Shown here piece after piece: positions 8,777 through 40,165 of a DNA stretch of 42,811 nucleotides (its first letter is position 1; every line of letters begins with the position of its first letter). Below the pieces are notes generated by a model, which made no database searches, was not told where the DNA came from, and worked only from the letters and a program-made list of their open reading frames with translations. A program made the position numbers and the translations under genes. The stretch lies in assembly GCA_002774795.1 (NCBI GenBank), contig PCYI01000019.1, forward strand, positions 65,480-108,290, read 5' to 3'. Origin of the DNA: Candidatus Vogelbacteria bacterium CG10_big_fil_rev_8_21_14_0_10_51_16. Lineage in GTDB: Bacteria; Patescibacteriota; Minisyncoccia; Phycocordibacterales; JACRKE01.

Positions 8777-10216
8777 TTAGATGGCATTGGGAAGTTCCTT
8801 GTTCTTCTTAATGGCTATGATACCGAGTTCCTGAAGCTGTTCGAAAGAGGCACTTGTGGGCACTCCCATAGTGGCCAGCCTACCATTTCCTGTCATCGGG
8901 AAGGCGATCACCTCTCTCACCGATTGTTCTCCAAGAAGTGCCATCAGAAATCTGTCTATACCCGGCGCGATGCCACCGTGGGGCGGCACTCCGTACGAGA
9001 AGGCATCAAGCATGTGATTAAACTCGGCTTTTTGCGTTTCGTTAAAACCAATGAGATCAAACACCTTTTTTTGTATTTTGGCATCATGGATACGGATACT
9101 GCCCCCGCCCACCTCAAAGCCATTTAACACCATGTCGTGTTGAAGTCCGCGTACCAAGGTTGGATCAGTGTCTAGAAGCGTCACGTCTTCCGGGTGGGGT
9201 GAAGTAAACATATGGTGCGATGGGGCAAAGGTTGCCTTTCCGGACCCATGGAAGAAATCGTCTTCGGACTGTTCGGTAAATAAGGGGAAATCCAGAGTCC
9301 AGGCGAAGGCAAGCTCGTTTGGGTCTTCTTTGTTTTTACGCAGGTCTGGTTTGTCTGTACCGTACTTCACTACGGCATCTCTGTGAGTAAGTCTCGGCCA
9401 AGGCTTTTCCGAAATATGCTTCTCCGGGAAAAGAGCTTCCACCATATCGGTAAAAAGCCCTTCCGCGAGCACCAAGATGTCTTCTTGTTCAACGAAAGAC
9501 ATCTCAATATCTAATTGGGTAAACTCGCCGTATGCTCTATCGGCTCTCGGGTCTTCATCCCTAAAACATCTTGCGAGTTGAAAGTACCTCTCAATACCTG
9601 CGACCATCAGCAGTTGTTTGTACTGTTGAGGGCTTTGGGGAAGGGCGTAAAAACTACCCGGGACTTTTCTTGCTGGCACCAAAAAGTCTCGCGCACCTTC
9701 AGGTGTGGTTTTTGTAAGTATAGGAGTGGATACTTCTGTAAATCTTCGGGCGGTGAGATACTCTCTCACGAACTTGCCGACCATCGCCTGCGCGCGCATA
9801 TTTCGAAGCATCCTCGGCCTCCTTAAGTCTAGATGTCTATGTTTCAGTCTTAACTCTTCGTTTATATCCATGCCGTCTCCTCGCAGGTCGAATGGCGGAG
9901 TGAGAGAGGGGTTTATTACTGTAAGACTGGTGGCCTCTATTTCTATGTCGCCATTTGGCTCGTCTTTGTTTACGAGTTTCTCTGGTCGGGCATGCACCAA
10001 CCCTTCTATCTCCACTACCCACTCACTGCGTATCTCTTCGGCGCTACTTTTCAAATCTTTATGGCTAGGTAGGAGCACGGTCTGCACATGGCCGGAAACA
10101 TCTCGTATGTCAAAAAAAACAAGCTTGCCGTGGTCGCGTCTCACGCTCACCCATCCTTTAATTAGAACGGGTTTCTCTATATATTGATGCAGTTCGTCGA
10201 TAAATACTCTTTTCAT
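8777..10216 (-). CDS. aspS: Aspartyl-tRNA synthetase, short archaeal/eukaryal-type architecture (no GAD insertion)
   Basis: OB-fold N-terminus, class II motifs (FRDEDPRADR, GGGSIRIHD, GIAPGIDR). Start moved to the ATG at 10216 (MKRVFIDEL); the track ORF begins at an upstream GTG. Confidence 0.9.
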   Translation of the reverse strand: MKRVFIDELHQYIEKPVLIKGWVSVRRDHGKLVFFDIRDVSGHVQTVLLPSHKDLKSSAEEIRSEWVVEIEGLVHARPEKLVNKDEPNGDIEIEATSLTVINPSLTPPFDLRGDGMDINEELRLKHRHLDLRRPRMLRNMRAQAMVGKFVREYLTARRFTEVSTPILTKTTPEGARDFLVPARKVPGSFYALPQSPQQYKQLLMVAGIERYFQLARCFRDEDPRADRAYGEFTQLDIEMSFVEQEDILVLAEGLFTDMVEALFPEKHISEKPWPRLTHRDAVVKYGTDKPDLRKNKEDPNELAFAWTLDFPLFTEQSEDDFFHGSGKATFAPSHHMFTSPHPEDVTLLDTDPTLVRGLQHDMVLNGFEVGGGSIRIHDAKIQKKVFDLIGFNETQKAEFNHMLDAFSYGVPPHGGIAPGIDRFLMALLGEQSVREVIAFPMTGNGRLATMGVPTSASFEQLQELGIIAIKKNKELPNAI

Positions 10217-10390: not shown

Positions 10391-11446
10391 TTAAAAATAG
10401 TCTATCTTCATCGCTCTTTTAACTTCCGCGAGAGTTTTGGTCGCCACCTCTCTTACCTGCTCGGTCCCCGCCTTCAAGATTCCCAGGACATGGTCGGGAT
10501 TCTTGGCCAGGTAGTTGCGTTGCTCACGGATGGGTGCGACCACCTCCTCTATGACTCCCGTAAGGCGGCGTTTTATTTCCATGTCGCCTAGTCCCCCAGC
10601 TCGGTAGCGGGCCTTAAGGTCTTCTACTGCTGTTTGGTTTGGGTCGAATACATCGAGATAGTCAAACACCACATTACCTTCAACTTTGCCAGGTTGCTCG
10701 ACATGAATGTGGTCTGGGTCAGTGTACATTGCCATCACCTTTTCCTCAATCTGCTCGCGACTGTCCGAGAGATAGATGCAATTGCCGAGACTTTTACCCA
10801 TTTTGGCCCCTCCATCGGTGCCGGATAGACGGGCCTTTGGGGGGATGACGGCCGTGACCCGCGGGAACACTTCCCCATAGAGAGCGTTAAACTTGTCCAC
10901 AATCTCATTGGTCTGCTCAATCATCGGCTTTTGGTCTTCGCCCACCGGCACCACGTTCGCCTTCACAAAAAGAATATCGGCCGCCTGCGAGACCGGATAG
11001 CATAGAAAGCCGGCCGGCACGCTCGCACGGGAGACTAGCTCACCGGGGGTGGCTTTGTCGGCCGCGGCGCGGTCAAATTCAAAGCCCTTGTCACGCATTT
11101 CGGCGCGGACAGTGGGGTTTTGGGTTAAACGAGAAACGGTCACTAGGTTCAAAAAGAAAATAGTGAGCTCGGCAATCTCCGGAATCATGGACTGTACGAA
11201 GAAAGTGGTCTTTGTCGGGTCCACGCCGGCGGCGATGTTGTCGATGGTGGTCTCGAGGATATTGTTACGCACCTTTTCCGGTTTATCGGCATTGTCTGTT
11301 AGGGCCTGAACGTCGGCCACCATCACGTACTGCTTGTACTCGTCTTGAAGTTTGACGCGGTTCTTTAGCGAGCCCACAAAGTGGCCCAAATGAAGCCGGC
11401 CCGTCGGTCGGTCACCCGTCAGTGCTATTTTTCGCTGTTCCGCCAT
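10391..11446 (-). CDS. trpS: Tryptophanyl-tRNA synthetase
   Basis: GRLHLGHFVG (HIGH-type) and KMGKS (KMSKS-type) motifs, and class Ic length (351 aa). Start placed at the ATG at 11446 (MAEQRKIALTGD); the upstream extension looks non-coding. Confidence 0.9.
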   Translation of the reverse strand: MAEQRKIALTGDRPTGRLHLGHFVGSLKNRVKLQDEYKQYVMVADVQALTDNADKPEKVRNNILETTIDNIAAGVDPTKTTFFVQSMIPEIAELTIFFLNLVTVSRLTQNPTVRAEMRDKGFEFDRAAADKATPGELVSRASVPAGFLCYPVSQAADILFVKANVVPVGEDQKPMIEQTNEIVDKFNALYGEVFPRVTAVIPPKARLSGTDGGAKMGKSLGNCIYLSDSREQIEEKVMAMYTDPDHIHVEQPGKVEGNVVFDYLDVFDPNQTAVEDLKARYRAGGLGDMEIKRRLTGVIEEVVAPIREQRNYLAKNPDHVLGILKAGTEQVREVATKTLAEVKRAMKIDYF

Positions 11447-11513
11447 GTTGCATGTATCATAGCAGGCATTATGAGTAAAGGTAAAGGCCGGGATGAGGCT
11501 CAATAATCGTCCG

Positions 11514-11547
11514 GTAAAGTTCAACTTTGCGTAAAGTTGAACTTTAC
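11514..11547. repeat. Perfect palindrome, 15-bp arms with a 4-nt loop, in the trpS 5' flank
   Basis: GTAAAGTTCAACTTT GCGT AAAGTTGAACTTTAC, read directly from the sequence. Confidence 0.8.
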
Positions 11548-11694
11548 ATCGCCCCGACCAAGCCTAAACAAAAAAAACACCAGTTGCCTGATGTGCTTTT
11601 TGTGTGAGTCGATTGAAGGGGGTACCTCCTTTCGCGTATCGACTCGGGACGCGCCACCGGTGGGGTGGACTTGATTCACGGCTGACCGGCCGAC

Positions 11695-12018
11695 TTAGTC
11701 GTTGCCGTGGGCGATAGTGTTCAGGCGGCGGCGCATGGCTTTCTCTTCGAGTTTGAGAGCTGCTTCCTTGATTGCGTCGCTGTTGCAGGACTCGGCGAGG
11801 AGACAGAGTTCGTGGTTGTAGGTGAATTCGCCGAGGATCTTGCTCAGGAACGCACATGCTACACCGATTGCCTGTATTCGGCTGATACCAGTTTCCGTTT
11901 CGAGTTCTCTTGCCCCGTCACCTACGGCCTTGTTGAGCGTGAGCAAGGCAGGGGCACTCACTCTCTCGACGATCACCTTGATGGCCTCTTGCTTGTATTG
12001 GGTGTCCTCCGATATCAT
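11695..12018 (-). CDS. Hypothetical protein, 107 aa, predicted soluble and helical (cassette 1, gene 4)
   Basis: AAAGGAG lies 4 nt upstream of the ATG. The start overlaps the upstream stop as ATGA. The longer 202-aa track ORF is an out-of-frame overlap with the upstream gene and was trimmed. Confidence 0.55.
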   Translation of the reverse strand: MISEDTQYKQEAIKVIVERVSAPALLTLNKAVGDGARELETETGISRIQAIGVACAFLSKILGEFTYNHELCLLAESCNSDAIKEAALKLEEKAMRRRLNTIAHGND

Positions 12019-12377
12019 TTCACTCCTTTCCGCCAGAGGCGGGGGTAAGGGTACTTGTCCGGCGGCGGGACCAGCGACCCGAAGTCGCACAGGAATCCCT
12101 TCTTCCAGAAGGTGAGCCGATGCCACACCGGCCGGTCTTCGCCCTGGAGCGACTTCGCATATGCCCACCTGTAGTAGTTTTCGTAGCCGAATGTGACCGG
12201 GCCGCCGCTCGAATGGATGAAGTCCATCAGGTCGAGCGAGCGGACGACAGTCTCCGCGAACTCGGAGCATTGGCCCCAAGCGCGCAGTTGGTCGTTTCCC
12301 CACGAACTCGCGAGGAACAGCGCCACGATGATGGGGGTTATGGCGGCTATGCTCGCCGTCCGTTTCAGCTCGTACAT
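12015..12377 (-). CDS. Hypothetical protein, 120 aa, with N-terminal hydrophobic anchor or signal (cassette 1, gene 3)
   Basis: GGAAGGAG lies 5 nt upstream of the ATG. The N-terminus IAAITPIIVALFLASSW is hydrophobic. The rest is rich in W, Y and P. Confidence 0.6.
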   Translation of the reverse strand: MYELKRTASIAAITPIIVALFLASSWGNDQLRAWGQCSEFAETVVRSLDLMDFIHSSGGPVTFGYENYYRWAYAKSLQGEDRPVWHRLTFWKKGFLCDFGSLVPPPDKYPYPRLWRKGVK

Positions 12378-12447
12378 CTTTTCTCCTTCCGTCAGCCGGG
12401 CGGTCTGGCCTCCCGGCGGGTTGGGGTAGTGGCTGTGGGGCGTGCGA

Positions 12448-13065
12448 CTACTCGCTCCCGTCGACTGTGCGGCGGCTGATGTCTACGAACGCACCCGAGA
12501 ATGTAATCCCTGTCATAGAACTGATTTCGCCGTAGTACTTAACTTGCCCTTCAAGCGGACCGAGCTCTGTTTCCTGCTCCGCTTTGGCGACGAGCACCTT
12601 CACGAATGCGACAAGACGAGCCAGCTCGATGGGAGTTATGGAGTACCCATCTCCCTTGTATACCACGAAGACTCCGGAGCCGACGCCTTTGAATTTCCAC
12701 GGGCCGAGTTCGAAGTTGCACTGGGGCTTGGAGATGTCGGACGCCATCTCCTTCATGTTCTCGGCGATGGCGCCGAGGGCACGCGGGAGAGTCTCCTTGT
12801 CGTTCAGTGCCTTGGCCACGGCCTCGTGGCCGTGAGGGGTGGCGGGTTGTGCGGTGCCCGCCGTTCCGTCCTGATTGCCGGAGCCGACAGTCATGAGGAA
12901 TGCCAAGGTTCCTGCAAGAACTAATAGCAGGAAGACCAGCCCTATGGCTAGATACGCGATGTCTCCAATCCTGTTTCGATACTTTCTCACGAGTGCTCCT
13001 TTCTGTTTCCGCCAGGGGCGGGTGTTTGGGTTCTCGTCGCGGGAGTTTTCACACATGCTGAACAT
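12448..13065 (-). CDS. Hypothetical single-pass membrane protein, about 205 aa (cassette 1, gene 2)
   Basis: Basic N-terminus, then TM segment IAYLAIGLVFLLLVLAGTLAFLMTV, then a 130-aa domain. Start placed at the ATG at 13065. AAAGGAGAGG lies upstream, but the 16-nt spacing is long, so the start is uncertain. Confidence 0.5.
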   Translation of the reverse strand: MFSMCENSRDENPNTRPWRKQKGALVRKYRNRIGDIAYLAIGLVFLLLVLAGTLAFLMTVGSGNQDGTAGTAQPATPHGHEAVAKALNDKETLPRALGAIAENMKEMASDISKPQCNFELGPWKFKGVGSGVFVVYKGDGYSITPIELARLVAFVKVLVAKAEQETELGPLEGQVKYYGEISSMTGITFSGAFVDISRRTVDGSE

Positions 13066-13468
13066 CCCGTGGTCGAAGTTTCCTCTCCTTTTCTCGCGGC
13101 GGGTAGGTGGCGTCGCCCGGGGCGGCGCCAATGAAGCGCACTCGGCCCTCGACCTCTTTTGGTGAGGGTATGGCTACGCTTAGGTTACTCTTCAGTAAGT
13201 CATCGAGTACTTTACCGATGGCCGTGGCCAGCAGTTCCGTGGCTTTGGCGTCAGACCTCGTGTCGGAATAGAAGAGGTCATCCACCTCGAATAGCACCGG
13301 CTCGGTAGGAAAAGGATAGACCTCGGAGACGAAGCGCACGGTGACCTGCTCTTCGGTAACCTGGAGGACCTCTACATTCGCGACCGCCCGCTTGATATTC
13401 TTTTGCGCGAGGTATACCTCTGTTCGGTTCAGGAATTGCGTGAGTCCATACACCTTCACCGTGAACAT
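13049..13468 (-). CDS. Hypothetical protein, 139 aa, soluble (cassette 1, gene 1)
   Basis: AAAGGAGAG lies 6 nt upstream of the ATG at 13468 (MFTVKVYGL). Third codon positions are rich in G and C. Confidence 0.55.
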   Translation of the reverse strand: MFTVKVYGLTQFLNRTEVYLAQKNIKRAVANVEVLQVTEEQVTVRFVSEVYPFPTEPVLFEVDDLFYSDTRSDAKATELLATAIGKVLDDLLKSNLSVAIPSPKEVEGRVRFIGAAPGDATYPPREKERKLRPRDVQHV

Positions 13469-13725
13469 GTTGTGCTCTCCTTTCGGCCGTATGGGCCGGT
13501 TCCGGTTGAGTTTCCAGTCCAACTAAATTGTCAAGGCCAGACCGTCAAGAAACAGGCATCGAGGCCTTGCCTCTAAATGCAACAGGAAGGAGGGCTTCTT
13601 TTTTCTGACAGTCTAGTGTGGCTAAGCTAGTAATATTAAATCACATTAGTAGCACACATGCAAAGGGTGTAGCGCCACTACTTATGAGGCCGAAATATGG
13701 TTTTTCGTCGTGGAGATGAAATGTC

Positions 13726-16611: not shown

Positions 16612-16815
16612 GTTAACCCCTCACACCTCTCACGACTCGCAAGTGTTATCCCGTTGGAGAACGGCCCGCCGGCCATTGCCTAAGCACAGCGATGGCGGGC
16701 AGGGATCCAGGTTCAACCAGGGGCTGGATCCCTGCCCGCCGCAGGCACGCCGGCCGGAGCTTACCCCGTACCGGATACGGGGCCAGGATGACATACTTGG
16801 GGTGTGATGGGTTAC
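16612..16815. repeat. Nested palindromic (MITE-like) element, copy B, the longest version
   Basis: Terminal inverted repeats GTTAACCCCTCACACC and GGTGTGATGGGTTAC. Central GGGATCCAGGTTCAACC..GGATCCC hairpin plus extra GC-rich nested palindromes. Confidence 0.7.
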
Positions 16816-30864: not shown

Positions 30865-31074
30865 ATGAGGCGAACGACGGGAAGCTGTCTAATAACGCTC
30901 GTGGCCGGGGTGCTCGGAGGAGCGAGCTTTTTGCTCCTTCTCCTTGCGCTCTTGTCTCGGGCACCGAACCAAGAACCGTTCACAAACCTGATTGTCGCGC
31001 TCCGCTCTTGGGGCGTGTTCTGGGGCAGCCTCGGCTGTGTGAGCGCCACGGCGCTCGCGTTCGTCGAACTGTGA
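30865..31074 (+). CDS. Hypothetical small membrane protein, 69 aa, two predicted TM helices (cassette 2, gene 2)
   Basis: GGAGGAG lies 5 nt upstream of the ATG. Hydrophobic stretches are LITLVAGVLGGASFLLLLLALL and WGVFWGSLGCVSATALAFV. Confidence 0.6.
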   Translation: MRRTTGSCLITLVAGVLGGASFLLLLLALLSRAPNQEPFTNLIVALRSWGVFWGSLGCVSATALAFVEL

Positions 31075-31087
31075 TGAGGAGGCAGGA

Positions 31088-31312
31088 ATGATTCCGAAAA
31101 GGTGCTTCATGGTCTCAATGGCCTATTTCATTTTCAACGCATGGTTCGGCCTCTACGCACACGATGTCATCGGACACCCTGCGCCTGGGGTCTGCCCGAA
31201 ACTGCTCGATGGCCACTGCGATTTCTCGTACTTGGCAATGGTCGGAATGATGATGGCGGCCCTTTGGATGCTCATGGACATCAGGCTACTTGGCCGGGAG
31301 GTGAAGTCGTGA
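31088..31312 (+). CDS. Hypothetical small membrane protein, 74 aa, two predicted TM helices (cassette 2, gene 3)
   Basis: GAGGAGG lies 5 nt upstream of the ATG. Hydrophobic stretches are FMVSMAYFIFNAWFGLYA and YLAMVGMMMAALWMLM. The loop is rich in Cys and His. Confidence 0.6.
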   Translation: MIPKRCFMVSMAYFIFNAWFGLYAHDVIGHPAPGVCPKLLDGHCDFSYLAMVGMMMAALWMLMDIRLLGREVKS

Positions 31313-31341
31313 TGACTGATGTTCGCTGAAGGCTGACGAGG

Positions 31342-31542
31342 TTGCGCTTGCGCTACATGGCTGTACGTTGGATCGGGGATGAGCCCGCCAACATGAGCCT
31401 GTCGGAACTGTCGGCGAAGCTGGCCGAAATCGGCCGGCGGCCACTTGCGAACTTCACCGCAGGGCGAGGTGTTGCTTCGGTCGAGCTGGCCTACTACATG
31501 CTCGAGAACGAGCTCAAGGTGCGACGCATACTCGCGCTTTAG
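31342..31542 (+). CDS. Hypothetical protein, 66 aa (cassette 2, gene 4), start uncertain (TTG at 31342 or ATG at 31357)
   Basis: Open frame in the cassette orientation. There is only a weak GAAGG 9 nt upstream of the TTG. Confidence 0.4.
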   Translation: MRLRYMAVRWIGDEPANMSLSELSAKLAEIGRRPLANFTAGRGVASVELAYYMLENELKVRRILAL

Positions 31543-31560
31543 CGAAAGGACGGAGGAACA

Positions 31561-31962
31561 ATGAAGGAGAAGGTTGAGATTTCGGACGCCTCAGAACTTT
31601 ACAGCCAGCTGGTGGAGGCCCTCTACTATCATCTGGTGGATAGAGTCGGGTTCAGGGCCCGGACAGGGCCCAATAGATACAGACAGGAAAATGTGTGGAA
31701 TAGCTTTGACGAAGCAGTCGCACTAGTGGTCAGTTCGGCCACTGAGGAATACGGAAAGAATCGTTTTGCGGAACCGTTGGCACGCAACTCGCGATTTCAG
31801 GTTCTCGGAACACAGAAGTGCGCCGAGGTCATGAACGACGCCATGCGCTCACTGGATTTTCTGGTCGGTACAGCGACACTCATCCGCAACGCCTCGCCCC
31901 ACAGGGCGGTGGCAATCGCCAAGGCCGTCGAAGGTGTACTCGGGATGCGAGTGGTGCGCTAG
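31561..31962 (+). CDS. Hypothetical protein, 133 aa, soluble (cassette 2, gene 5)
   Basis: GGAGG lies 4 nt upstream of the ATG. The gene is followed by a strong terminator. Confidence 0.6.
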   Translation: MKEKVEISDASELYSQLVEALYYHLVDRVGFRARTGPNRYRQENVWNSFDEAVALVVSSATEEYGKNRFAEPLARNSRFQVLGTQKCAEVMNDAMRSLDFLVGTATLIRNASPHRAVAIAKAVEGVLGMRVVR

Positions 31963-32017
31963 TAGCCACTGGGTTGTGTACCCAGCTTCCAACCAGATTC
32001 GATTTTTCAAGGTCGCG

Positions 32018-32082
32018 CGAAAGGCCGTGGTACAAGGTATACCACAAGGCCGACTACCGCGGCCTTTCGTATTTTCTTTTTT
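32018..32082 (+). terminator. Intrinsic terminator closing cassette 2
   Basis: CGAAAGGCCGTGGTA...TACCGCGGCCTTTCG gives a stem of about 15 bp, followed by TATTTTCTTTTTT. Confidence 0.7.
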
Positions 32083-32128
32083 GAATTCACAACTTAGCTG
32101 CGATAGCAGGTAAGTTGTGAATTAGTTT

Positions 32129-35988: not shown

Positions 35989-37044
35989 TTATTTGCTCGC
36001 AAGCCCAAAACGTCCCTCCTTCTCCTTTTTAAAGTAGTTGTGATTTTGAAGATTTACAACAATGGTGTTTTCTTTAACGTAGCGCTCTTTGAGGACCTTG
36101 GCAATAATTTCGTTTTTTGTCAGAGGTCCGTTTTTCTCGAGAATCTCGCGAACGATCTCTTTGACCGTCCCCTTTTTATAGCCCCACTCCTGCAGGGCGT
36201 AGAGGCCACGCCCAACAAGAACAAAACGTCCGTCCTTAATGAGTTCATTGTGGCAGGTGGCCACATGCGCGCTCCGACCAAAGGTGCTTGCAATCTCTTT
36301 GGCCACTTCCCGGAAGTGCATGGGCGAGCCATGCTTTCTCAAAATCAGATAAGCGTAGTCACGGATACCACGAGCCTTAATATTCGGTGACTGACTAGCG
36401 CCCCACTCTCCTAGTGGGTTTGCCCCAATACGTTTTGAAATTCGCATCCATCTCCGCGCGATCTCTTCGTTGTCGTTTGCGTTCGGCCGGCACTCTTTCA
36501 GCTTGTTTATAAATCGAAGGATCATGTCTGCCTCTGAAATCAACTCTTCTTCCTTGATATCTTTGTGAACAGCGTGTAGAGCCTGGCGAACAGCATCGCT
36601 CATGGCCGGGTCTACAACCCAGGTGTGGTGAAAGTCCGAGTCCTCCTTCACTTTCACAAAAGGTTCTCCTAGGACAAGGAAAAAATGAATATGGTTTTGA
36701 ACATGCTTGTCATCGGAAATTGTTTGAAAAAAATCACGCTCATGAACCACTCCGCCATATTTTGTGATTAGTTCGCTTAACTCATCGAACACTCCCGCAA
36801 TCTCAGTAAAACTTCTTGATTTGCGTATTTGGGCAAGAGAAAAGTTCTCGATCTGACGGACGCGCTCGCGCGTAATGCCGTACTCTTGGCCGATAGCTTC
36901 GAGAGTGAGCCTTTCGACTTGTTCGCCAAGTCCGTAGCGCTTTTTAATAACATCAGCCCCTCGTACATTAAGGGTGGCCAAAAGAGCCTTGGTTATCTTT
37001 TTGGGATTAAAACTTACTTTTGCGGTCACTTTGTCTTTTGTCAT
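35989..37044 (-). CDS. DNA-binding protein with a sigma-70 region-4-like HTH followed by HARE-HTH-like domain(s)
   Basis: RYGLGEQVERLTLEAIGQEYGITRERVRQIENFSLAQIRK is a region 4.2-type HTH. The later FREVAKEI...LIKDGRFVLVGRGLYALQEWGY resembles the HARE-HTH of RNAP delta. Confidence 0.6.
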   Translation of the reverse strand: MTKDKVTAKVSFNPKKITKALLATLNVRGADVIKKRYGLGEQVERLTLEAIGQEYGITRERVRQIENFSLAQIRKSRSFTEIAGVFDELSELITKYGGVVHERDFFQTISDDKHVQNHIHFFLVLGEPFVKVKEDSDFHHTWVVDPAMSDAVRQALHAVHKDIKEEELISEADMILRFINKLKECRPNANDNEEIARRWMRISKRIGANPLGEWGASQSPNIKARGIRDYAYLILRKHGSPMHFREVAKEIASTFGRSAHVATCHNELIKDGRFVLVGRGLYALQEWGYKKGTVKEIVREILEKNGPLTKNEIIAKVLKERYVKENTIVVNLQNHNYFKKEKEGRFGLASK

Positions 37045-37160: not shown

Positions 37161-37282
37161 AACCCCCCCAAACCTCTGACGTCTCTAGAGTATCATTCCG
37201 TTGCAGAACGGGATCCAGGTTCAACCCTAGCCTGGATCCCGTTCTGCAACGGAATGACATACTTAGGGTGTGAGGGGTTACC
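37161..37282. mobile_element. Nested palindromic MITE-like element, copy C (minimal version), flanked by a 7-bp direct repeat
   Basis: Near-perfect palindrome CATTCCGTTGCAGAACGGGATCCAGG..CCTGGATCCCGTTCTGCAACGGAATG inside the termini AACCCCCCCAAACC and GGTGTGAGGGGTTACC. ATGCAAG occurs at 37152-37158 and again at 37283-37289. Confidence 0.5.
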
Positions 37283-37294
37283 ATGCAAGTCTTG

Positions 37295-40165
37295 TCAACC
37301 TGTCACTATGTTTATTAGCTTATTTGGGATGTAGATTACTTTTGTGACAGTACGTCCCTCAAGCCACTTCTGCATCTTTGGGCGAGCGAGGGCCTGCTCC
37401 CTAGCGGACGTTTCATCCAGCTCTTCTTTGGTGATAAAGGTGTCGCGGCTTTTGCCGTCTATCTGCACCGCGATCACATGCTCGTCCGACACCAGTTTGG
37501 CGGGGTCGTAGACGGGCCAGGAAGACCGGTGAACAGAGTCCGTATTCCCAAGCGCCTGCCACAACTCTTCAGCCATATGAGGGGCGAAAGGTGCCAGCAC
37601 TCTCAATAAAGCCATATAGGTTGACCTGGAAATAGTGCCCATTTTTTCGACTCCATTTACCAAAATCATCATGGCAGAGACCGCTGTGTTGAATTTGAAT
37701 TCAGCAATGTCCTCCCCCGCCTTCTTTATTGTCTGATGGAGAAGGCGCTCTTCCTCTGGCGGAGTCTCGACATTCTTGACCTTCTCTCGCAGACTCCAGA
37801 TGCGTTCCAAAAATCTGCGCACTCCAATGATGCTTTTCGTTTGCCAAGCGATGGCGTTTTCAAATGGGCCCATAAACATCTCGTAGAGTCTCAAGCTGTC
37901 CGCTCCATAAGTAGAGACAATATCGTCGGGATTGATGACATTTCCCCAGCGCTTAGCCATCTTTCGTCCGTCCTCGGCGAGGATAAATCCAAGAAATTCC
38001 AGACGAGCAAACGGCTCGGAGGTGCTCACTACTCCTATGTCGTGCAGAAATTTGTGCCAAAAACGGGCATAAATCAGATGTCGAACGGCGTGGTCTCCAC
38101 CAACATATACATCGACGGGGCTCCAGTATTTCTCTGCTTGTGGCGATACAAGCTGCCTGTCGTTATGAGGATCCATAAAGCGTAGGTAGTACCAGCTGGA
38201 GCCCGCCCACTGCGGCATCGTGTTGGTCTCTCGCTTCCCTGCGCCTCCGCAACTCGGGCAGACGGTATTTACCCACTCATCAATATTGGCCAAGGGTGAC
38301 TCCCCTGTTCCAGTCGGTGCATACTGTTCCACCGGGGGCAAGGTGATGGGCAAGTCGTCTTCGCTCACGGGCACAACACCACAGAGTAAGCAATGAATGA
38401 CGGGAATGGGCTCACCCCAATAACGCTGGCGGGAAAACACCCAATCGCGAAGTTTGTAAGTCGTTTTTGGCGCGGCTTTGATTTTCTTGGCTATTGTCTC
38501 CCGCCCCTCCGCACTGGTAAGACCACTGAACTCGCCGGAATCACTCAACACTCCTTCTCCAGTATAGGCAACATCGCCTGATAGCATCATGCGTTCAATC
38601 CAGAGCGGCATTTCGGTGTTGACCATTGTACCGGGGACAAAATGGTTCGCGTCGACCCAGAGCACTTCATTGTCGTCGGCGATTTCGTCAGTGATGGGTA
38701 CCCTCTTGTGACCCACAAGCTCAAAGTACACCCCGGTAGTAACTGCCACCCGATTCTCGTCTTTGTGCTTGGCGAAGTACGAGGCCTGAACCGGCGCCCC
38801 CAGGGTGCGCTTGTAGATTAGATTAGTGTAGCCACTTTCTTCCTCCACCTCCCGTCTGGCGGCTGCGACCGGGTCTTCCCCATCTTCAATCCCGCCTATG
38901 ATAATTGTGTCCCAGCCCTGCTTTTCATTCCTCAAGATGAGGTATTTATTTTCTTTGGGGTCAAAGACTATCGCGTGGACATTTCTGCGTGTTTTTGATG
39001 GTTTGTCCACCCGAGGTGGATTTACCTTGTAATCAACAAGGTGGGGCATGACAACATGCTTTATGGGCAGACCATACTTTTTGGCAAAAGCGTGGTCTCG
39101 CTCGTCGTGGGCCGGTACTGCCATCACTGCCCCGGTGCCGTAGTGTCCAAGTACGTAGTCGGCCACCCAGACGGAAATCTCCTCGCCCGTGGCGGGATTA
39201 ATCGCCTTTATTCCCTTGAGCTCCACCCCTGTCTTCTCCTTATCCACGGATGTCCGCTCTATCTCTGTTTTCTTTTTGCAGTCATCCAGATATTGTTGCA
39301 CCTCTTTGGAGTTTTGTGCTTTGTGCTTTGTGCTTTCTACAAAGGGGTTCTCCGGCGCCACAACCAGATAGGTGGCCCCATAAATGGTATCAAGGCGCGT
39401 TGTGAACACCTTTATGCTTTTGTGCTCCGCGCTTTGTGCTTTGTGCTTTGTGGAGTTTGCCAGAGTAAATTCCACTTCGTGTCCTTCGCTCCTCCCTATC
39501 CAATTCCGTTGAGCCGTCTTGATGGAGTCCGGCCAGTCAAGGAGGTCTAAATCCTTAATCAAACGGTCTGCATAGTCGGTAATCTTGAGCACCCACTGGC
39601 GCATGGGCTTCTTCTCCGCTTCGCTGTCACATCTCTCGCACCGGCCTCCGTCGAGGTCTTCATTTGCGAGGCCCGTCTGGCACGATGGGCACCAGTTTAT
39701 CGGCTCGTGTGATTCGAATGCCAGACCTTTCTCAAGCAGTTTTAGGAAAATCCACTGGGTCCATTTATAGTACGCTGGGTCTGTCGTATTTATCTCCCGT
39801 GACCAATCGTAGTCAAAGCCGATGATAGAAAGTTGTTCTTTGAAGCGAGCGATATTCTTTTTCACAGCGGCGCTTGGATGCACTTTATTTTTGATGGCGA
39901 AGTTTTCGGCGGGCAGGCCAAAGGCGTCCCAACCCATGGGGTGCAAGACGTTAAATCCGTTCATCCGCTTAAAGCGCGAGTAGATGTCTGAGGCTATGTA
40001 CCCCTTTGGATGCCCCACATGGAGGCCTTCGCCGGAAGGGTACGGAAACATATCGAGTACATAGTGTTTTGGCTTGGAAGATGTGTCTTCAGTTTTGTAG
40101 ACCTGATCCTTTTCCCACTGCTCCTGCCACTTCTCTTCTATTTTTTTATGGTCGTATGCTTCCAT
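37295..40165 (-). CDS. leuS: Leucyl-tRNA synthetase with a Nudix-box-containing insertion and short repeat-derived insertions
   Basis: 956 aa. PYPSGEGLHVGHPKGY (HIGH), editing-domain TTRLDTIYGATYLVVAPE and GTGAVMAVPAHDERD, KMAKR (KMSKS-type), plus an internal GGIEDGEDPVAAARREVEEESGY. Confidence 0.93.
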   Translation of the reverse strand: MEAYDHKKIEEKWQEQWEKDQVYKTEDTSSKPKHYVLDMFPYPSGEGLHVGHPKGYIASDIYSRFKRMNGFNVLHPMGWDAFGLPAENFAIKNKVHPSAAVKKNIARFKEQLSIIGFDYDWSREINTTDPAYYKWTQWIFLKLLEKGLAFESHEPINWCPSCQTGLANEDLDGGRCERCDSEAEKKPMRQWVLKITDYADRLIKDLDLLDWPDSIKTAQRNWIGRSEGHEVEFTLANSTKHKAQSAEHKSIKVFTTRLDTIYGATYLVVAPENPFVESTKHKAQNSKEVQQYLDDCKKKTEIERTSVDKEKTGVELKGIKAINPATGEEISVWVADYVLGHYGTGAVMAVPAHDERDHAFAKKYGLPIKHVVMPHLVDYKVNPPRVDKPSKTRRNVHAIVFDPKENKYLILRNEKQGWDTIIIGGIEDGEDPVAAARREVEEESGYTNLIYKRTLGAPVQASYFAKHKDENRVAVTTGVYFELVGHKRVPITDEIADDNEVLWVDANHFVPGTMVNTEMPLWIERMMLSGDVAYTGEGVLSDSGEFSGLTSAEGRETIAKKIKAAPKTTYKLRDWVFSRQRYWGEPIPVIHCLLCGVVPVSEDDLPITLPPVEQYAPTGTGESPLANIDEWVNTVCPSCGGAGKRETNTMPQWAGSSWYYLRFMDPHNDRQLVSPQAEKYWSPVDVYVGGDHAVRHLIYARFWHKFLHDIGVVSTSEPFARLEFLGFILAEDGRKMAKRWGNVINPDDIVSTYGADSLRLYEMFMGPFENAIAWQTKSIIGVRRFLERIWSLREKVKNVETPPEEERLLHQTIKKAGEDIAEFKFNTAVSAMMILVNGVEKMGTISRSTYMALLRVLAPFAPHMAEELWQALGNTDSVHRSSWPVYDPAKLVSDEHVIAVQIDGKSRDTFITKEELDETSAREQALARPKMQKWLEGRTVTKVIYIPNKLINIVTG

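Follow-up and report, generated by a model that had tools for sequence, protein, structure and literature searches.

What occupies the chromosomal position between the gene of a DHH phosphoesterase and trpS in Candidatus Vogelbacteria CG10_big_fil_rev_8_21_14_0_10_51_16, where four small genes of no recognisable family stand in an otherwise housekeeping stretch? The DNA analyzed here (the window) is 42,811 nt long and corresponds to positions 65,480-108,290 of the forward strand of contig PCYI01000019.1 (NCBI GenBank assembly GCA_002774795.1; GTDB Patescibacteriota; Minisyncoccia; Phycocordibacterales; JACRKE01). Its content is that of a housekeeping region, with genes for ribosomal proteins, rpoA, grpE-dnaK-dnaJ, aspS, trpS, leuS, alaS, scpAB, and mraY-ddl-ftsW-murG. 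A preliminary description of this DNA had noted four open reading frames (ORFs) on the minus strand between the DHH gene and trpS, and had read them as a foreign-looking accessory operon. The ORF list and a reading of the minus strand confirmed these ORFs, which are named G1 to G4 from the DHH gene towards trpS (Table 1). The observation was thus confirmed, with corrections that are given below, and the earlier interpretation was partly supported. With slightly better than even confidence, we read the four genes as a real orphan operon that is a horizontally exchanged, dispensable accessory cassette in a variable chromosomal slot, probably with a role in the cell envelope.

Translation signals and coding signal of the four genes

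All four genes are preceded by AAGGAG placed close to the start codon, with a spacing of 8 nt for G1, 5 nt for G2 (when read from GTG), 5 nt for G3 (before its ATG), and 4 nt for G4. The Shine-Dalgarno (SD) sites reported earlier therefore stood, although not in every detail. The site of G1 (AAAGGAG at 13483-13477, with the hairpin CGGCC-cata-cGGCCG upstream of it) lies outside the claimed spacing of 4-6 nt. The site of G2 does not serve ATG 13065, from which this gene had been read and for which the SD is distant only, but the in-frame GTG 12990, where AAAGGAG is found 5 nt upstream. The sole homolog of G2 (P0123, described below) aligns from exactly the residue encoded by GTG 12990, and an in-frame stop codon is located just upstream in that copy. 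Because of this SD site and this alignment, GTG 12990 was taken as the start of G2. It follows that a 58-nt gap separates G1 from G2 in place of a 17-nt overlap. The latter had been offered as a sign of coupling, and it needs ATG 13065, probably the wrong start. The other sign, the ATGA stop-start overlap of G3 and G4, was confirmed. The gap between G2 and G3 is 70 nt.

In contrast to the four genes, none of the ~30 backbone gene starts inspected in the window has a placed SD core, as had been claimed for the backbone genes inspected earlier, and their leaders are A/C-rich. The backbone genes of a related contig (L178, see below) likewise have no placed SD. The SD-less starts in the window and in L178 include those of ribosomal proteins and dnaK, and trpS appears nearly leaderless, with TATGAT 9 nt before its ATG. 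The host's own genes in the window clearly do not rely on SD sites. The closest trpS genes are those of Parcubacteria/Paceibacteria-type metagenome-assembled genomes (MAGs; such as Nomurabacteria and Vogelbacteria, 61-70% identity), and the host is a genome of this type whose own genes use no SD sites. The motif AAAGGAG occurs 17 times in the window, compared to 8.4 times in shuffled sequence, and five of the 17 copies lie within 11626-13483 on the minus strand. This contrast matters because only 48% of Parcubacteria 16S rRNAs were found to carry the anti-SD motif (PMC9297842). The absence of SD sites from the backbone fits this reported lack of the motif in about half of them.

The called frames show the pattern GC1 > GC2 < GC3 (GC content at the first, second, and third codon positions) in all four ORFs (0.64/0.37/0.67 in G1). 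GC3 of G1-G4 is 0.67-0.82, with the value of 0.82 in G3, compared to 0.40-0.54 in backbone genes. Long overlapping ORFs in other frames, such as 11695-12303 on the minus strand and 12442-12924 on the plus strand, show the displaced pattern expected of non-coding frames. Comparison of G2 with its diverged relative G2' (see below) gave a ratio of nonsynonymous to synonymous substitution rates (dN/dS) of 0.30 over the 113 codons before a frameshift, which indicates that G2 has evolved as a protein. Lack of conservation or coding signal in relatives had been named as grounds for rejecting the ORFs; diverged relatives of G2 and G4 exist, and G2 is under purifying selection. Based on the GC periodicity, the SD sites at correct spacing, the coupling of G3 and G4, and the dN/dS of G2, G1-G4 are real protein-coding genes.

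Composition had been put forward as additional support for a foreign origin. The high GC3 of the cassette is real, but the GC-rich block also takes in trpS (GC3 0.64) and the DHH gene (0.66), where GC3 is raised along the whole length of both genes and falls sharply only at aspS and PLD. The position of both trpS and the DHH gene is ancestral, and neither has an SD. Because these two genes share the raised GC3, composition does not delimit the cassette in this genome, and it is the SD sites that mark its borders. Import of the whole DHH-trpS block from a GC-richer relative was also considered, and pairwise identities gave no decision on it.

The slot between the DHH gene and trpS

The junctions DHH-G1-G2-G3-G4-trpS are identical in at least eight independent assemblies (ENA, JGI, and Logan). 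Across these assemblies the DNA is identical except for one single-nucleotide polymorphism, the gene order is the same on every contig that is long enough, and the exact G1, G4, DHH, and trpS proteins recur. Since the junctions recur in independent assemblies and agree across both flanks, the join is not chimeric, and an assembly artifact, which had been raised as a concern, was rejected.

The slot is the one variable position in a conserved block of ~20 genes. This was established with two relatives. Contig L178, the nearest relative, was reached by a trpS protein search that returned P0003 (70% identical), followed by contig look-up, and L021 is a Candidatus Vogelbacteria MAG. The order trpS-aspS-scpA-scpB-...-murG is shared by the window, L178, and L021, and the order L17-...-PLD-DHH is common to the window and L178. 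Thus ~20 genes are collinear between the window and L178, in the two blocks that lead from L17 to PLD-DHH and from trpS to murG. The content of the slot differs in all three. In L178, it holds a different orphan gene of 332 aa, led by the SD GAAAGGAG and with a GC3 of 0.74. Downstream of it come a hairpin-plus-terminator, with weak similarity to that which follows G4, and then a low-GC PaaX-like gene. In L021, four orphan ORFs lie directly upstream of trpS, with a GC content of 55% (GC3 0.63-0.67) in a backbone of 41% GC, and two of the four have AAGGAGG sites. GC3 of trpS is 0.38 in L021, so that the composition step there falls at the cassette itself. The last ORF of L021 ends in GND, like G4. 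Apart from these terminal residues, BLASTP, phmmer, and hhalign detected no homology between G1-G4 and the proteins of L021, L178, or a second cassette of the window (described below). G1-G4 are not core genes of related genomes, and the earlier reading of the operon as accessory stood in so far as this position holds other genes in relatives whose backbone synteny is the same.

Two side observations concern the flanks in L178. Copies of the palindrome ACGGTATAyyTACGTACGTAGATATACCGT stand on either side of the PaaX-like gene (9280-9960, 184 aa, PaaX_M, Cas2-like domain), which is located between the 332-aa orphan and trpS. The aspS of L178 (11300-12631) is only ~33-38% identical to that of the window (8777-10216), compared to 71% for L021, and a replacement of aspS in one lineage is likely.

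A diverged second copy of the cassette, with the gene of P0123, was found on short, low-coverage contigs (L180-L183) that are identical in four assemblies and come from the same samples as the window organism. The copy on L180 shares with the window the TTGACAATTTAG-headed 5' region and the 3' element. It contains a relative of G2 (G2'), with 50% identity after correction of a frameshift at a G-run, and a relative of G4 (G4'), also frameshifted, with 30% identity across 50 aa (E 2e-4 against a small local database). G1 and G3 are missing from this copy. Because both G2' and G4' are frameshifted, such cassettes decay, and the loss of G1 and G3 together with two frameshifts that are identical in four assemblies shows that the cassette is dispensable. 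This only related copy retains relics of G2 and G4; the part of the earlier reading that treated the four genes as a single system was not supported. A further contig, L014 (1-85, the end of a contig of JGI 3300025850), joins the L180-type 5' part of G2' to window-type G2 at a shared 23-nt stretch inside G2, and may have arisen as a chimera of the assembly or by natural recombination of the two copies.

The cassettes also share non-coding sequences. A stretch of ~45 nt, from a TTGACA box upstream of G1 to the CGGCC..GGCCG hairpin, is common to the window and L180. No good -10 box was found in this region and the sigma-70 scan made no call; it is a candidate promoter. A small module, CCGCCYCTGGCGGAA followed by AAAGGAG, precedes G2, G4, and G2' of L180, and the copies before G4 and G2' read CCGCCTCTGGCGGAA plus AAAGGAG. 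As part of the reading that we prefer, and with the same slight lean, G1-G4 would form one transcription unit that extends from the TTGACA-headed region to the terminator at 11594-11569.

This terminator is the last of three parts of a conserved 3' element. The first part is a hairpin of the form CCACC-loop-GGTGG, with a variable loop. The second (11645-11606) is an 8-bp hairpin with the arms GAGTCGAT and ATCGACTC around the loop ACGCGAAAGGAGGTACCCCCTTCA, in which AAAGGAGGUA is paired with CCCCCUU, that is, an SD-like AAGGAGG faces CCCCCTT. No start codon follows this SD-like sequence. The third, an intrinsic terminator, combines a GNRA loop with a T-run. The whole intergenic region around the element folds unusually well (z = -4.4). 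The element was compared at 11672-11566 in the window, 1866-1975 in L021, 1236-1322 in L180, and, weakly, 9134-9239 in L178. It is 87% identical to L021 and 90% to L180, whereas the housekeeping DNA of the window and L021 is 63% (trpS) and 69% (aspS) identical. The conservation runs from the last codons of G4 through the terminator in the window, L021, and L180. Although L178 is the closer genome overall, the element is closer in L021, which fits horizontal movement better than vertical descent. Rfam gave no match to the element, and none that was relevant at E <= 10 within 11380-11780. DNA-pattern scans found nothing in IMG/VR or in JGI metagenome contigs; the JGI metagenome collection evidently lacks this species, since the best trpS match there was 65% identical.

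A T-box, a trpS attenuator, and a described trpS leader or riboswitch were rejected as identities of the 3' element on the basis of this Rfam result and its position relative to the trpS promoter. The promoter-like site of trpS (11485-11456) is located downstream of the terminator of the element, and the element is not adjacent to trpS in L021 and L178, where another gene intervenes.

It could be argued that G1-G4 are native, vertically inherited genes of a very fast-evolving lineage-specific kind, that their GC3 is regional, and that the SD sites provide special translational control. Several observations agree with this: the GC3-rich block includes the ancestral trpS and DHH genes and ends sharply only at PLD and aspS, no mobility gene is found nearby, and the cassette is fixed in every contig of the species that spans the locus. 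The gene order upstream of trpS in L021 is also similar (a small soluble protein, a TM-anchored one, and a helical one ending in GND; TM, transmembrane), and many small membrane proteins of ultra-small bacteria evolve very fast. Nevertheless, we consider such an origin unlikely. In L021, a 55% GC cassette stands beside a trpS with a GC3 of 0.38, so that the high GC of this cassette is its own and not a feature of the region. Conservation of the 3' element far exceeds that of housekeeping DNA, and the element is closer in the more distant L021 than in L178. A degraded second copy is present on separate contigs from the same samples, and the slot of L178 holds an unrelated 332-aa gene.

Away from the slot, the window contains a second cassette of the same style (30865-32123, plus strand), on the strand opposite to the backbone. 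Its ORFs have a GC3 of 0.65-0.75, two of them have TM segments, and none has a Pfam match. They are followed by a hairpin terminator (32018-32069) and a perfect palindrome with 18-bp arms (32084-32123). No sequence similarity to the first cassette was found. Inverted repeats around GGGATCCAGG / CCTGGATCCC are intergenic at 37171-37279 and 16694-16740, occur also at 7725-8071 of L178, and may form a REP-like (REP, repetitive extragenic palindromic) family in the window genome and L178. Two genes of the window are unusual in domain content. The leucyl-tRNA synthetase (37295-40165, minus strand, 956 aa) has a NUDIX match at residues 392-509 (E 1e-11), directly after the editing domain, an insertion that is unusual for this enzyme, and a 351-aa protein (35989-37044, minus strand) combines sigma-70 region 4 with HARE-HTH (HTH, helix-turn-helix), an uncommon pairing. 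The window contains no tRNA genes and no Rfam match at gathering score.

Table 1. Features of the first cassette, its non-coding elements, and the second cassette (positions in the window)
Feature	Coordinates	Strand	Description or basis
G1	13468-13049	-	139 aa, soluble
G2	12990-12448	-	180 aa from GTG 12990 (preferred); 205 aa from ATG 13065 (less likely)
G3	12377-12015	-	120 aa, N-terminal signal peptide or anchor
G4	12018-11695	-	107 aa, soluble, helical
TTGACA box heading a promoter-like region	13529-13534	-	Sequence reading and alignment with L180
Hairpin-plus-SD module	12991-13021	-	CCGCCCCTGGCGGAA 13021-13007, AAAGGAG 13002-12996, 5 nt, GTG of G2
Conserved 3' element, 107 nt, three parts	11566-11672	-	After G4; alignment and folding
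Perfect palindrome, 15-bp arms GTAAAGTTCAACTTT / AAAGTTGAACTTTAC	11514-11547		Between the terminator and the trpS promoter-like site
Second-cassette ORFs, tightly packed, SD-led	30865-31074, 31088-31312, 31342-31542, 31561-31962	+	Four small ORFs, GC3 0.65-0.75

Orphan proteins and their likeness to known systems

Hydropathy analysis supported the soluble/membrane/membrane/soluble layout that had been described for the four proteins. G1 has no hydrophobic segment and a mixed alpha/beta prediction. A single strong TM segment (Kyte-Doolittle 2.78) follows the basic N-terminus of G2, at residues 14-32 of the 180-aa form, and the protein is predicted to cross the membrane once with its N-terminus inside (type II), leaving an external domain of ~145 aa. 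G3 has an N-terminal hydrophobic segment (1.91) with a cleavage-like site ASS/W, is rich in Trp and Tyr, and contains two Cys residues. G4 has no hydrophobic segment, is predicted to be all-helical with five helices, and ends in GND. Type IV pilins or pseudopilins were rejected as identities of G2 and G3, as no class III signal peptide was seen on inspection and no Pfam pilin family matched. G2 reads ...RNRIG|DIAYL, without Glu at +5, and P0123 reads ...NRSG|NVVVD, which is inconsistent with G2; in G3, no Gly precedes the hydrophobic segment.

No meaningful match to G1-G4 was found in Pfam, NCBIfam, PADLOC, or PHROGs, and no sequence match in PDB, in agreement with the earlier statement that no family is recognisable. 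G1 found no homolog but itself among 5.8 billion proteins. For G2, an exhaustive HMMER search of 1.84 billion representatives returned a single homolog, P0123, with 49% identity. Searches of the cassette proteins by tblastn found nothing in 50,697 phage records or 72,556 plasmids, and scans of IMG/VR for G1, G2, and the 3' element found nothing either. Single-sequence AlphaFold2 (AF2) models were poor (predicted local distance difference test score, pLDDT, of 47.6 for G1, which is not usable, and 63.4 for the all-helical G4), and the fold search that had been suggested was fruitless: Foldseek against PDB gave no match below E 0.29, and none for G4. By these sequence comparisons, the cassette proteins appear to be new families.

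Surface, host-interaction, toxin-immunity, and defence roles had all been suggested earlier, and none is favoured by the searches against PADLOC, PHROGs, phages, plasmids, PDB, and folds. We find it doubtful, more so than a native origin, that the cassette is an anti-phage defence, abortive-infection, toxin-immunity, or phage-derived exclusion module, in which G2/G3 would be an effector or sensor and G1/G4 a regulator or antidote. A variable slot, small size, orphan status, and decay are typical of defence islands and phage accessory genes. In addition, G4 resembles a TetR-type HTH region weakly and without significance (E 0.89), and G1 matches PADLOC PbeC weakly (E 0.0036, 13.9 bits). The latter match, however, covers an internal 90-residue stretch of a 673-position profile, and PbeC belongs to the phosphorothioate-dependent PbeABCD module, whereas dnd genes are absent. 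PADLOC and PHROG gave no significant match, domains of a nuclease, ATPase, protease, or other enzyme were not detected, and the phage, plasmid, and IMG/VR collections gave nothing. A known defence system (PADLOC-DB v2) was thus rejected, as the PbeC match is at noise level and lacks partner genes.

That the ORFs are partly or wholly spurious, within a structured non-coding region or a decaying remnant in GC-rich DNA, is very improbable: such DNA does give long ORFs in other frames (11695-12303 on the minus strand and 12442-12924 on the plus strand), G1 has no homolog and G3 no family or PDB match, the related copy is frameshifted, and the intergenic RNA folds unusually well, but only the called frames show GC1 > GC2 < GC3 with the raised GC3, all four starts have an SD at working distance, the dN/dS of G2 is low, and Rfam gave no match. 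All three of these explanations have less support than the accessory cassette.

Among known systems, the closest likeness seems to be with genomic islets, which are small, strain-variable blocks of accessory genes located between conserved core genes at recombination hot spots. As in genomic islets, the syntenic flanks (the DHH gene and trpS) are conserved while the gene content differs in each related genome, the composition and translation signals are atypical of the host, and the genes are orphans that show signs of decay and are accompanied by no mobility genes. As to polymorphism among strains, the same cassette is present on every contig that encodes the exact DHH or trpS protein, and the diverged, degraded copy (L180-L183) is present in the same samples. 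Acquired DNA is usually AT-richer than its host. Unlike genomic islets, the cassette here is GC-richer, it carries SD-led genes in an otherwise SD-less genome, and the cassettes share homologous non-coding 5' and 3' ends, of which the 3' element is more conserved than core genes.

The locus also resembles integron cassettes, in that short ORFs of the same orientation, each with its own ribosome-binding site, form a variable cargo between conserved elements, and a structured palindromic element follows the array. In contrast to integron cassettes, the conserved element follows the whole operon and not each gene. An integron array was rejected because Pfam scans found no intI in the 42.8-kb window and an inverted-repeat scan found no attC-like pairs inside 11.7-13.5 kb. 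The intergenic space contains only 13-nt hairpins ahead of the SD sites and no attC-type palindromes of 50-150 nt, and G3 and G4 overlap.

The palindrome with 15-bp arms downstream of the operon recalls REP sequences with their REP-associated tyrosine transposases (RAYT) and the insertion sequences (IS) of the IS200-IS605 type, whose Y1 (HUH) transposases act on DNA hairpins. The same palindrome, with three compensated changes, is found twice in L021 (1986-2025 and 2729-2770), where it flanks an IS200-like Y1 transposase gene (Y1_Tnp, E 7e-7). This palindrome-transposase-palindrome layout of L021 resembles the REP/RAYT arrangement. Unlike in these elements, the window has a solo copy of the palindrome outside the transcription unit and no transposase, and nothing ties the transposase to the movement of G1-G4. 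An IS200/IS605 or REP-RAYT element was therefore rejected for the window, with one palindrome and no Y1_Tnp gene, the full arrangement being found in L021 only. Most likely, the palindrome is part of a REP/IS200-type element and not of the operon.

Phage lysis or membrane-protein cassettes (holin or spanin-like pairs) and phage accessory genes (morons) are alike in that small, overlapping genes, among them one for a type II membrane protein and, after it, one for a small protein with a signal peptide, are inserted as an autonomous unit that has its own terminator. They differ from the locus here, which has no endolysin, no lipobox in G3, and no other phage genes nearby. A phage origin was rejected, as no PHROG match was better than E 0.07 and the phage tblastn and IMG/VR scans were empty. 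A diversity-generating retroelement was also rejected, as the window contains no reverse transcriptase.

Reading of the locus as an accessory cassette

In the reading that we prefer, the cassette would have been drawn from a pool of GC3-rich, SD-led orphan genes among related Parcubacteria, whose cassettes have homologous 5' and 3' ends and variable cargo. Exchange would probably proceed by recombination through the conserved ends or the flanking genes. Judged from topology, G2 would be an N-in membrane anchor with an external domain and G3 would be secreted or anchored; both may work on the outside of the cell, where they would meet a host cell or phage, with G1 and G4 as cytoplasmic partners. 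G2 and G4 may be the core pair, because only these two have recognisable relics in the related copy.

Several points weigh against this reading. No donor was found, and Pfam scans of all large ORFs of the window, which returned housekeeping families only, detected no integrase, transposase, or recombinase. A direct trpS-DHH junction, which had been suggested as a comparison with sibling genomes, was not found in relatives: no genome with an empty slot was obtained, the slot was differently filled, and no presence/absence polymorphism was seen within the species. No close siblings of this genome were present among species-representative genomes or metagenome contigs, and the relatives share 40-80% amino-acid identity with the window, that is, at the level of genus or family only, where some turnover of gene content is expected anyway. 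The proteins of L021 have no detectable homology to G1-G4 beyond the C-terminal GND. Since the ancestral, SD-less trpS and DHH genes share the raised GC3, this may reflect a local effect or a larger recombination tract rather than the cassette. The envelope role is predicted from hydropathy, with structure models too poor to use, and the searches of large protein databases covered G1 and G2 only.

A broader proposal, which we regard as improbable at present, is that cassette-like mobile units of a class not yet described may exist in SD-less Parcubacteria. The cargo of such units would be short arrays of GC3-rich orphans, each led by a small hairpin and a strong SD. Their ends would be the TTGACA-headed 5' region and the 3' element, with its near-perfect SD (AAAGGAGGU) paired with CCCCCUU and its terminator. 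The 3' element could then serve as a recombination or targeting site for exchange at fixed slots, or in translation control of the SD-dependent genes within a cell that translates most of its genes independently of SD sites. Further arrays would be the one at 30.86-31.96 kb of the window and the analogous ones in two other genera.

Most variable genes of the ultra-small Patescibacteria, which depend on other cells, are uncharacterised. As an accessory cassette, the locus would be a fixed chromosomal site at which orphan genes, some of them surface-exposed, are replaced from genus to genus, and the SD sites, which are absent from the host's own genes, would separate imported from native genes. 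The conserved 107-nt 3' element may be used as a handle to find more such cassettes in metagenomes, and the interest of the locus could rise if this element proves to be the marker of a widespread cassette family. If the pattern is general, it would become testable how streamlined symbionts acquire and try new surface or interaction genes, and whether an SD-independent translation system still reads SD-led foreign genes.

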